Shown in pieces: positions 1,263 to 57,676 of a stretch of DNA of 64,000 nucleotides (its first letter is position 1; each line of letters starts with the position of its first letter). This DNA comes from Escherichia coli (GTDB taxonomy: Bacteria > Pseudomonadota > Gammaproteobacteria > Enterobacterales > Enterobacteriaceae). The stretch is taken from assembly GCF_003334355.1 (NCBI RefSeq), contig NZ_QOWP01000012.1; one strand, 5' to 3'. Under the pieces are notes generated by a model that was not told the origin of the DNA, made no database searches, and worked only from the letters and a program-made list of their open reading frames with translations. Both the position numbers and the translations under genes were made by a program.

Positions 1263-1276
1263 TTGCGCTAAATCAA
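1263..1276 (+). promoter_or_regulatory. Candidate FNR box TTGCG-N4-ATCAA upstream of hcp
   Basis: Matches 8 of 10 consensus positions of TTGAT-N4-ATCAA; centred about 100 bp upstream of the hcp start. hcp-hcr is a known FNR-activated anaerobic operon. Confidence 0.4.
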
Positions 1277-1334
1277 TCTCCCTTAAAGTTGCATGAAAAA
1301 TCCCTTTTATCCCCGCGTTAAGCGTCTTAACCTT

Positions 1335-1360
1335 AAACATGTATATTAAATATAACTTTA
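1335..1360 (+). promoter_or_regulatory. Candidate NsrR operator, AT-rich imperfect palindrome in the hcp promoter
   Basis: AACATGTATATTAAATATAACTTT resembles the NsrR inverted-repeat consensus (AAGATGCATTT-N-AAATGCATCTT type); hcp is a known NsrR target. Exact boundaries uncertain. Confidence 0.4.
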
Positions 1361-1372
1361 AAAGGTGTGATC

Positions 1373-3025
1373 ATGTTTTGTGTGCAATGTGAACAAACTA
1401 TCCGTACTCCGGCAGGAAACGGCTGCTCATACGCGCAGGGGATGTGTGGTAAAACGGCGGAAACTTCTGACCTTCAGGATTTACTCATCGCGGCGCTGCA
1501 AGGGCTTTCTGCCTGGGCGGTAAAAGCGCGTGAATACGGCATCATCAACCACGATGTTGACAGCTTCGCGCCACGTGCCTTTTTCTCAACCCTGACCAAC
1601 GTTAACTTCGATTCTCCGCGTATTGTCGGCTACGCTCGTGAAGCGATTGCCCTGCGCGAGGCGCTGAAAGCGCAATGCCTGGCTGTAGATGCCAACGCGC
1701 GCGTCGATAACCCGATGGCTGACCTGCAACTGGTGAGCGACGATCTCGGCGAGCTGCAACGTCAGGCAGCAGAATTTACCCCTAACAAAGATAAAGCGGC
1801 GATTGGCGAAAACATTCTCGGCCTGCGTCTGCTGTGCCTGTATGGCCTGAAAGGTGCGGCGGCCTATATGGAACACGCGCATGTTCTCGGTCAATACGAC
1901 AACGATATTTATGCCCAGTACCATAAAATCATGGCGTGGCTGGGGACCTGGCCTGCCGATATGAACGCGCTTCTTGAGTGTTCAATGGAAATCGGCCAGA
2001 TGAACTTCAAAGTGATGAGCATTCTGGATGCAGGCGAAACCGGTAAATACGGTCACCCGACGCCAACCCAGGTCAACGTCAAAGCGACGGCGGGTAAATG
2101 CATTCTGATTTCCGGTCACGATCTCAAAGATCTCTACAACCTGCTGGAACAGACCGAAGGCACGGGCGTTAATGTCTACACCCACGGCGAAATGCTGCCT
2201 GCGCATGGCTACCCGGAGCTGCGTAAATTCAAGCATCTGGTCGGTAACTACGGCAGCGGCTGGCAGAATCAGCAAGTGGAGTTCGCTCGTTTCCCTGGCC
2301 CCATCGTGATGACCTCGAACTGCATCATCGACCCAACCGTAGGCGCTTATGACGATCGTATCTGGACCCGCAGCATTGTTGGCTGGCCTGGCGTGCGTCA
2401 TCTGGACGGTGATGATTTCTCTGCGGTTATCACCCAGGCGCAACAGATGGCAGGCTTCCCGTACAGCGAAATTCCGCACCTTATCACCGTGGGTTTTGGT
2501 CGCCAGACGCTGCTTGGCGCTGCTGATACGCTGATTGATCTGGTGAGCCGTGAAAAACTGCGTCATATCTTCCTGCTTGGTGGCTGTGACGGCGCACGCG
2601 GCGAGCGCCACTACTTCACCGATTTCGCCACCAGCGTGCCGGATGACTGCCTGATCCTGACCCTCGCCTGTGGTAAATATCGCTTTAACAAACTTGAGTT
2701 TGGCGATATCGAAGGTCTGCCGCGTCTGGTAGATGCAGGTCAATGTAACGATGCTTACTCAGCGATTATTCTGGCTGTCACTCTGGCAGAGAAACTGGGC
2801 TGTGGTGTGAACGATCTGCCGCTGTCGCTGGTGCTCTCCTGGTTTGAACAGAAAGCGATCGTCATTCTGCTGACGCTGCTTTCTCTGGGCGTGAAAAATA
2901 TCGTCACCGGCCCGACTGCACCTGGTTTCCTGACACCAGACCTGCTGGCGGTGCTGAACGAGAAATTCGGCCTGCGTTCTATCACCACTGTTGAAGAAGA
3001 CATGAAGCAACTGTTGAGCGCGTAA
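1373..3025 (+). CDS. hcp: Hybrid-cluster protein (hydroxylamine reductase / NO-stress protein)
   Basis: 550-aa ORF from the ATG at 1373; N-terminus MFCVQCEQT with a Cys-rich cluster-binding motif; followed directly by hcr. Confidence 0.95.
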
Positions 3026-3036
3026 GGAGTTTGTCG

Positions 3037-4005
3037 ATGACGATGCCAACGAATCAATGCCCGTGGCGGATGCAGGTTCATCACATTACGCAAGAAACGC
3101 CGGATGTGTGGACGATTTCCCTGATTTGCCACGATTACTACCCATATCGCGCCGGGCAATATGCACTGGTCAGCGTGCGAAACTCAGCGGAAACGCTGCG
3201 TGCTTACACCATTTCCTCCACGCCAGGCGTGAGTGAATATATCACCCTGACCGTGCGGCGGATTGATGACGGTGTCGGCTCCCAGTGGCTGACGCGCGAT
3301 GTAAAACGCGGTGATTATCTCTGGCTTTCGGACGCGATGGGGGAATTTACCTGCGACGATAAAGCAGAAGATAAATTCCTGTTGCTGGCGGCAGGCTGCG
3401 GCGTCACGCCGATTATGTCGATGCGTCGCTGGCTGGCGAAGAACTGTCCACAGGCCGATGTACAGGTGATCTACAACGTGCGCACGCCGCAGGATGTTAT
3501 TTTCGCCGATGAGTGGCGTAACTATCCGGTAACGCTGGTGGCGGAAAATAACGTTACCGAAGGCTTTATCGCTGGTCGTCTCACTCGCGAACTGCTGACT
3601 CGCGTTCCTGACTTAGCTTCACGTACCGTGATGACCTGCGGCCCGGCTCCGTATATGGATTGGGTAGAGCAGGAAGTGAAAGCGCTCGGCGTGACGCGTT
3701 TCTTTAAAGAGAAATTCTTCACCCCAGTAGCGGAAGCAGCGACCAGCGGTCTGAAATTCACCAAACTGCAACCGGCACGAGAATTTTACGCCCCGGTTGG
3801 CACCACGCTACTGGAGGCGCTGGAAAGCAATAACGTTCCGGTTGTCGCCGCCTGCCGTGCGGGTGTTTGCGGCTGCTGTAAGACAAAAGTGGTTTCCGGT
3901 GAATATACGGTGAGCAGCACAATGACGCTGACCGACGCCGAAATCGCTGAAGGTTACGTACTGGCCTGCTCCTGCCATCCGCAGGGGGATTTGGTTCTCG
4001 CATAA
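3037..4005 (+). CDS. hcr: NADH oxidoreductase for Hcp (FAD and 2Fe-2S ferredoxin-reductase-like)
   Basis: 322 aa from the ATG at 3037 with TAAGGAG 7 nt upstream; C-terminal CRAGVCGCC 2Fe-2S motif; starts 12 nt after the hcp stop. Confidence 0.93.
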   Translation: MTMPTNQCPWRMQVHHITQETPDVWTISLICHDYYPYRAGQYALVSVRNSAETLRAYTISSTPGVSEYITLTVRRIDDGVGSQWLTRDVKRGDYLWLSDAMGEFTCDDKAEDKFLLLAAGCGVTPIMSMRRWLAKNCPQADVQVIYNVRTPQDVIFADEWRNYPVTLVAENNVTEGFIAGRLTRELLTRVPDLASRTVMTCGPAPYMDWVEQEVKALGVTRFFKEKFFTPVAEAATSGLKFTKLQPAREFYAPVGTTLLEALESNNVPVVAACRAGVCGCCKTKVVSGEYTVSSTMTLTDAEIAEGYVLACSCHPQGDLVLA

Positions 4006-14344: not shown

Positions 14345-14442
14345 GGGTTTTGTAGGTCTGATAAGACGCGCCAGCGTCGCATCAGACATCAGCACGGTGC
14401 CTGTGCCGGATGCGGCGGGGACGCCTTATCCGGCCTACATAG
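14345..14442. repeat. REP/BIME cluster (two inverted REP units) downstream of artM
   Basis: GTAGGTCTGATAAGACGCGCCAGCGTCGCATCAGAC and GCCGGATGCGGCGGGGACGCCTTATCCGGCCTAC match the enterobacterial REP consensus. Confidence 0.85.
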
Positions 14443-15391: not shown

Positions 15392-15492
<101 letters not shown>

Positions 15493-27053: not shown

Positions 27054-27165
27054 AACTGAAGTTGCCCTGAAAATGAAATTTTTTTGCACAACCGCAGAAC
27101 TTTTCCGCAGGGCATCAGTCTTAATTAGTGCCACTGCTTTTCTTTGATGTCCCCATTTTGTGGAG

Positions 27166-27209
27166 CCCATCAACCCCGCCATTTCGGTTCAAGGTTGATG
27201 GGTTTTTTG
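27166..27209 (+). terminator. Intrinsic terminator downstream of ybjL
   Basis: CCCATCAACC...GGTTGATGGG 10-bp stem followed by TTTTTTG. Confidence 0.55.
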
Positions 27210-27227
27210 TTATCTAAAATTTATCTA

Positions 27228-50817: not shown

Positions 50818-50900
50818 CAGGCCTGATAAGACGCGACAAGCGTCGCATCAGGCATTTGCTCCAGACGCCAGATGCGGCGTGAACGCCTTATCTGGCCTAC
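50818..50900. repeat. REP/BIME cluster between convergent moeB and fsaA
   Basis: GCCTGATAAGACGCGACAAGCGTCGCATCAGGC and CAGATGCGGCGTGAACGCCTTATCTGGCCTAC. Confidence 0.85.
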
Positions 50901-51648: not shown

Positions 51649-51778
51649 AACCATCCTCAAAATGTACTTTTTGTCTGAATGTAGACTATCACGGGAAAAC
51701 TCTCTGAACAGTTGACGCACATCAATCTAACTTTCATTCGAAAGTATTTTAATGCTTGAACGAAATAGAGAGGCAACT

Positions 51779-55116: not shown

Positions 55117-55261
55117 TCTCCTCGGCCCGGCGGCGTCGTCGCCGGGCTAAATCATTCACATCATCAATTTCATCCTTACTTTCATTCGAAATATAATTTG
55201 TGCTCTGCGTCACATTGTTATTACACTGTTACGGTTTCATTTTCGAGCCAGGAGCACACCT

Positions 55262-57572: not shown

Positions 57573-57676
57573 TAATGCCTGATGCGGCGTTAACGCCTTA
57601 TCCGGCCTACAAAGTCCTGCAGATTCAATATATTGCAGGTACTGCGTAGGCCTGATAAGCGTAGCGCATCAGGCTA
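57573..57676. repeat. REP/BIME cluster between ybiU and ybiT
   Basis: GCCTGATGCGGCGTTAACGCCTTATCCGGCCTAC and GTAGGCCTGATAAGCGTAGCGCATCAGGC, with an internal CCTGCA...TGCAGG hairpin. Confidence 0.85.

Follow-up and report, generated by a model that had tools for sequence, protein, structure and literature searches.

FNR and NsrR operators in the hcp-hcr promoter of Escherichia coli

How does the hcp-hcr operon of E. coli register the loss of oxygen and the arrival of nitric oxide, and which bases in front of hcp carry each signal? The question is raised by an earlier note on a 64,000-nucleotide stretch of E. coli DNA (here the window, to which all coordinates refer), which was made from the letters alone. 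It proposed an FNR site at 1263-1276 and an NsrR site in the palindrome at 1335-1360, held that the pair fits anaerobic and nitrosative-stress control of hcp, and named weight-matrix scans and a comparison with the mapped transcription start as the appropriate checks. Our analysis leaves little room for doubt that this is the hcp-hcr regulatory region, with FNR activating from 1263-1276 and NsrR repressing from 1336-1358 until nitric oxide relieves it. Both sites are already published, and there is nothing new in them.

Promoter layout and transcription start

The window opens with the lysO–hcp–hcr–poxB locus of E. coli: its first 6 kb carry lysO (ybjE), hcp, hcr, poxB and ltaE, all on the + strand, and both motifs lie in the 143-bp region between lysO and hcp. 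Bases 1100-1500 have 100% identity to an E. coli chromosome annotated there as lysO followed by hcp, and all but one of 5426 complete E. coli genomes contain this stretch. The genes and signals that frame the promoter are the following.

330-1229, + strand: lysO (ybjE) coding sequence, the upstream neighbour (RefSeq annotation of the identical locus; open reading frame list)
1227-1229, + strand: lysO stop codon, TAA
1362-1367, + strand: ribosome-binding site of hcp, AAGGTG (direct reading; conserved)
1373-3025, + strand: hcp, hybrid cluster protein (annotated hydroxylamine reductase)
3037-4005, + strand: hcr, NADH oxidoreductase partner of Hcp

No Rfam family was matched within the lysO–hcp intergenic region. 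A Bacteroides preprint on an antisense RNA in an hcp promoter was considered and set aside as not applicable to the E. coli hcp locus.

The positions of regulatory sites have meaning only relative to the start of transcription, which is marked as experimentally mapped by Rodionov 2005 (Fig. S1) at the T between AAACATG and ATATT, that is, T1342. This assignment agrees arithmetically with the position of -72.5 that Myers 2013 (Table 1) gives for the FNR site of hcp. A simple sigma-70 scan of 1150-1450 passed no consensus pair, as expected for an activator-dependent promoter, and the hexamers below are candidates placed by their distances from each other and from the start.

1305-1310 (about), + strand: candidate -35 hexamer, TTTTAT, 17 bp upstream of the candidate -10
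1328-1333, + strand: candidate -10 hexamer, TAACCT, 8 nt upstream of the mapped start
1342, + strand: mapped hcp transcription start, T (Rodionov 2005, Fig. S1)

Across species CCTTTT is conserved at the candidate -35 and TAnnCT at the candidate -10 (1.73 bits per position), which reads TATGCT in Yersinia. Myers 2013 reported no sigma-70 ChIP peak at hcp under the conditions used and remarked on a "sigma-E site", the source of which we could not trace in the cited Rhodius 2006. A sigma-E-driven hcp promoter was considered and rejected, there being no convincing sigma-E promoter by eye. The likeliest reason for the missing sigma-70 peak is repression by NsrR in the nitrite-free medium.

The FNR box and the primary NsrR operator

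The two operators are defined as follows; neither has an assigned strand.

1263-1276: FNR binding site TTGCGCTAAATCAA, centre -72.5 (matrix, conservation, ChIP-seq of Myers 2013)
1336-1358: primary NsrR operator, 11-1-11 inverted repeat AACATGTATAT-T-AAATATAACTT, -6 to +17

The FNR box agrees with TTGAT-N4-ATCAA at 8 of the 10 specified positions. That pattern, allowed up to two mismatches, has 46 matches in the window against 32 expected, so the box taken alone is not above chance. A second scan used a matrix of 62 ChIP-positive sites (Myers 2013, Table S6) from which hcp had been omitted. It gave 13.46 bits, the second-highest score in the 64 kb and within the 11.9-21.5 bits spanned by the training sites; 1.12 hits at this score are expected per shuffle, and it was reached in 61 of 100 shuffles. 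What lifts the box above chance is its location in the 143-bp promoter region, its near-perfect conservation and the published ChIP-seq: the site listed under the hcp peak in Table S6 of Myers 2013 (E. coli K-12), TTGATTTAGCGCAA, is the exact reverse complement of 1263-1276. That study, in which hcp has an FNR peak by ChIP-seq/ChIP-chip, assigns the operon to its category 1, and one of its supplementary tables counts hcp-hcr among the FNR-activated operons. With its centre at 1269.5 and the start at 1342, the box sits at a distance that permits activation by FNR (class I).

The palindrome at 1335-1360 (AAACATGTATATTAAATATAACTTTA) is AT-rich and imperfect, and has the 11-1-11 repeat as its core, the arms of which are complementary at 7 of 11 positions by direct reading. 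The operator pattern tested was an 11-1-11 inverted repeat like AAGATGCATTT-N-AAATGCATCTT. A strict consensus search of the window with up to three mismatches returned no match, which is explained by the four positions at which the site departs from the consensus by eye, and a weight matrix was used instead. This was built from 18 sites of Mehta 2015 (Table 4) without hcp, comprising ChIP-positive sites and three that are otherwise supported according to that paper. The segment 1336-1358 scored 25.24 bits, first of about 64,000 positions; none of 100 shuffles reached this value, and the mean shuffle maximum was 14.06.

Published data place NsrR on the same bases. In the ChIP-seq study of strain CFT073 (Mehta 2015), the ChIP-positive hcp site of Table 4, AAGTTATATTTAATATACATGTT, is the exact reverse complement of 1336-1358; with an ln P of -23.87 it is the second-best 11-1-11 site of that genome after ytfE, and the peak summit, 22 bp upstream of the ATG (about 1351 in the window), falls inside it. 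According to the same paper, hcp was also among the promoters bound in an earlier ChIP-chip study of K-12, and nitrate induces hcp 43.7-fold in CFT073. Comparative genomics had earlier predicted both the FNR and the NsrR site at hcp (Rodionov 2005), the NsrR site being given in Table S2 as cATGtATaTTAAATatAaC, which corresponds to 1338-1356. The operator overlaps the start site, an arrangement compatible with repression, and an nsrR mutant of Salmonella, whose palindrome is identical to 1336-1358, shows a 284-fold rise in hcp mRNA. An hcp-promoter lacZ fusion serves in the field as a reporter of NsrR and nitric oxide.

Both operators named in the earlier note are thus borne out, at coordinates correct to within 1-2 bp: each coincides base for base with a published site, in the case of NsrR through the core of the palindrome. 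The matrix scans bear the two calls out to different degrees, FNR with a score in the range of validated sites and NsrR with a clear first rank, and, with the start at T1342, FNR lies where a class I activator would and NsrR straddles the start. Occupancy of both sites in vivo, the transcription start and the derepression of hcp in the nsrR mutant or with nitrate are documented in the literature.

We wondered how far these sites are kept beyond E. coli. Loci containing hcp were fetched from 80 Enterobacteriaceae species, 78 of which had usable upstream regions, giving 79 sequences with the window. Mean identity to the window reached 0.991 in the FNR box and 0.960 in the NsrR site, as against 0.46 in the spacer at 1309-1329 and 0.68 at the 3' end of the lysO coding sequence. 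The FNR box is identical in 69 of the 79 sequences, with variants at box positions 4, 6 and 9, and the 77.5 bp between the FNR and NsrR centres is maintained in 76. When the sequences were profiled without gaps from the FNR box as anchor, conservation over 14 bp was highest for the segment starting exactly at 1263, and over 23 bp for that starting exactly at 1336. The arms of the NsrR site carry 1.79 and 1.98 bits per position and its central base, 1347, only 0.79, the least of any position within the site, which is the pattern predicted by an 11-1-11 dimer site; the spacer carries only 0.71 bits per position. Both sites are retained in Yersinia and Erwinia, and both are unchanged among the E. 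coli variants sampled. Some of the conservation at 1336-1358 could come from constraints on the start site and the 5' UTR.

The left half of the FNR box, TTGCG, is off consensus (TTGAT) and is itself nearly invariant: it occurs in 77 of the 79 sequences and, in addition, in Yersinia and Erwinia, and TTGAG is found only in two Superficieibacter species. Selection may therefore be keeping the site deliberately short of the optimum, or these bases may be under a second constraint.

A natural disruption of the promoter was noted along the way. In E. coli O169:H41 strain 2014EL-1345-2 (locus L084, about 2590-3928), an IS421 element (IS4-like) lies in the promoter spacer at the equivalent of about 1313 in the window, flanked by an 11-bp target duplication (CCTTTTATCCC). 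It parts the FNR box and the NsrR-like site next to it from the core promoter by about 1.3 kb, and this strain is the only split match among the matches listed from the 5425 genomes.

A second NsrR-like site and alternative readings

The NsrR matrix also picks out a segment between the FNR box and the candidate -10.

1286-1308, no strand assigned: second, weaker NsrR-like site AAGTTGCATGA-A-AAATCCCTTTT, centre -45 (matrix)

At 18.27 bits, this is the second-best NsrR match in the 64 kb and lies above the mean shuffle maximum. It overlaps the likely -35 and the zone in which the alpha subunit of RNA polymerase would dock. The left half-site, AAGTTGCAT at 1286-1294 in the window, has an entry for hcp in Mehta 2015 (Table 2); the distance printed there, 11, may be a misprint, since we count 78 bp. 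In 64 of the 79 species the distance of the site from the centre of the FNR box is the same, +27.5 bp. The matrix gives it about 20 bits in Klebsiella and about 21-25 in Kluyvera, Yersinia and some others, but no more than 5.6 bits in Salmonella and Enterobacter. Its mean identity to the window is 0.76, compared to 0.96 for the downstream site. It also varies among E. coli strains, which have ATGA, ATTA or ACAA and CCC or CTC; in CFT073 and JJ1887 the upstream half-site reads AAGTTGCATTA, with T where the window has G.

These observations allow a reading in which 1286-1308 is an ancient second NsrR operator, acting as an anti-activator in the alpha-docking zone and since decayed in Salmonella, Enterobacter and some Citrobacter lineages. 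We regard this as rather unlikely. The region resembles an A-rich docking site for the alpha subunit, and its conservation therefore has more than one possible cause. The 2010 work of Chismon reportedly discusses "redundancy" at the hcp promoter, and a second operator may already be described there for E. coli.

A stronger form of this idea would make 1286-1308 the main operator, blocking FNR-dependent recruitment from -45, with 1336-1358 conserved mainly as core promoter and 5' UTR. Its rank and score in the window, its half-site entry in Mehta 2015 and its offset from the FNR box, constant as far as Yersinia, in which the upstream and downstream sites score equally high (about 21 bits), all lend something to this proposal. 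It is nevertheless very improbable: the upstream site is inferior in both score and conservation and varies within E. coli, whereas the downstream site is constant in the sampled strains; the ChIP-seq summit falls inside the downstream site, about 54 bp from 1286-1308; and in Salmonella the upstream site has decayed to 5.6 bits, yet loss of nsrR there derepresses hcp by the factor of 284. We therefore retain 1336-1358 as the primary operator.

The identity of the bound proteins can be questioned too. Perhaps the chief occupant of the AT-rich palindrome is one of the nucleoid proteins IHF, Fis or H-NS, or the palindrome owes its conservation solely to its role as start site, discriminator or 5' UTR. 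Its composition and its overlap with the start and the 5' UTR, which are conserved for reasons of their own, would suit such an explanation, but in Table S6 of Myers 2013 the FNR site of hcp close by is without recorded enrichment of Fis, H-NS or IHF, the positive NsrR ChIP-seq signal has its summit within the palindrome, and the 25-bit score exceeds all shuffles. The conservation pattern, with two conserved arms around a variable central base, moreover matches the prediction for an 11-1-11 dimer site and is not that of a UTR in general, and we give this explanation almost no weight. Equally hard to credit is the notion that the FNR-like box is a chance near-match kept for some other constraint, such as another regulator or the adjacent hairpin at the 3' end of lysO. 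The motif alone is indeed not above chance, its non-consensus TTGCG and N4 spacer are strongly conserved, and within the Enterobacteriaceae conservation extends into the flanks (1259-1283). Against this, an FNR ChIP-seq peak and motif call fall exactly on 1263-1276, the conservation maximum starts at its first base, the flanks diverge in Yersinia and Erwinia while the box stays, and -72.5 suits activation in an operon listed as FNR-activated. The evidence thus favours FNR at 1263-1276 and NsrR at 1336-1358.

Neighbouring elements and proposed control

Two further elements follow the lysO stop codon, ahead of the FNR box.

1230-1245, + strand: NarL/NarP-like 7-2-7 element TACCTCT-CT-GGCGGTA, centre -104.5 (consensus match)
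1239-1258, + strand: conserved GC-rich hairpin GGCGGTAG-ATCC-CTGCCGCC (folding, covariation)

The first has two mismatches to TACYYMT-N2-AKRRGTA, of which the window holds 6 such matches against 2.2 expected, and in most species its left heptamer agrees, or almost agrees, with TACYYMT. A NarL/NarP site at -104.5 of the hcp promoter is reportedly described in the 2010 work of Chismon. Nitrate and nitrite induction of hcp is NarL/NarP-dependent, with candidate NarP sites marked, in Rodionov 2005.

The hairpin shares bases with the NarL/NarP-like site, whose right heptamer serves as its left arm, and it ends 4 nt before the FNR box. The 61 nt at 1225-1285 have a folding energy of -17.5 kcal/mol (z = -4.2), the hairpin stem being the main helix. 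The 8-bp stem is present in 69 of 79 species with a loop of 4 to 6 nt; stem pair 6 occurs as T.G in 39, T-A in 27 and C-G in 3, and stem pair 8 changes in a compensatory manner (G-C in 61, A-T in 3 and C-G in 3). The wobble and compensatory changes, the variable loop and the folding energy favour an RNA stem-loop over a protein-binding palindrome, and the hairpin is thus probably a 3' stem-loop of the lysO mRNA, formed in + strand RNA. A terminator scan of 1150-1450 found nothing and no T-run follows the hairpin, which is therefore not a canonical intrinsic terminator.

Elsewhere in the window, the scans returned several matches that we record for their own sake. The best FNR match, TTGACGCACATCAA (51712-51725; 16.4 bits), lies between fsa and ybiY, 27 bp ahead of the ybiY ATG; this site, known from published FNR ChIP-seq at ybiY/fsaA, belongs to the FNR training set. 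An NsrR-like site of 17.9 bits (mean shuffle maximum 14.06), TACTTTCATTCGAAATATAATTT (55177-55199), occurs between ybiW and ybiV, 63 bp upstream of the ybiV ATG, and is absent from Table 4 of Mehta 2015. Another, ACATTTCCTTTTAATTGCAACTT (236-258; 16.2 bits), precedes the lysO start codon by about 70 bp. A weak NsrR-like motif at 27059-27081 scores 14.05 bits, which is chance level, and lies 52-74 bp upstream of the start of the RybB sRNA (Rfam match 27133-27211); according to a 2025 paper, rybB is repressed by NsrR, with no robust binding to the promoter in vitro. Rfam matches to naRNA4 (CssrE) and ES036 (CssrF) fall in other intergenic regions, at 14355-14435, 50820-50897, 15415-15457 and 57611-57653.

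The hcp-hcr promoter can be set beside related systems. It is the locus characterized in E. coli K-12 (Rodionov 2005; Myers 2013; Mehta 2015), with the FNR box, the NsrR palindrome and the start all identical. The ytfE operator (AAGATGCATTTAAAATGCATCTT) shares the 11-1-11 design and the relief of repression by nitric oxide, and the ytfE and hcp sites are the two top-ranked NsrR sites in CFT073. The ytfE site is a near-perfect consensus, whereas at hcp the core carries T/A where C/G would stand (ATGTAT, ATATAA) and the arms pair at only 7 of 11 positions. Like hcp, the nrfA and hmp promoters combine FNR with NsrR (and, at nrfA, with NarL/NarP) and so integrate oxygen, nitrate/nitrite and nitric oxide. 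The geometry differs: FNR is a class II activator at nrfA, acting from -41.5, and NsrR binds upstream there, whereas at hcp FNR is at -72.5 and NsrR lies over the start. At hmp, FNR is a repressor. The hcp gene is also reported to be under OxyR control.

We propose the following course of events at hcp. When oxygen is absent, an FNR dimer would occupy TTGCGCTAAATCAA, 72.5 bp upstream of T1342, and activate a promoter with weak -35 and -10 elements, presumably through a class I contact with the alpha subunit of RNA polymerase, as the position of the box and general knowledge of FNR suggest. As long as nitric oxide is absent too, NsrR in its iron-sulfur form would remain on 1336-1358 and override FNR, probably by occluding the start from RNA polymerase, which is what the placement of the operator and the usual behaviour of such repressors would lead one to expect. 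Nitric oxide derived from nitrite or nitrate would nitrosylate the NsrR cluster, so that NsrR leaves the DNA and FNR-dependent transcription proceeds. The NarL/NarP-like element at -104.5 would probably add a modest boost by nitrate or nitrite, and the weaker NsrR-like site at -45 may, judging from where it lies, add repression in some lineages.

The value of these results is mainly one of quality control: two real operators were placed to within 1-2 bp from raw sequence alone. If 1286-1308 is indeed a second operator, then control of hcp by nitric oxide would differ by enteric genus, relying either on occlusion of the start site alone or on occlusion combined with anti-activation. The hcp promoter is a textbook-style case of signal integration, in which oxygen is read through FNR, nitric oxide through NsrR, and nitrate and nitrite through NarL/NarP.
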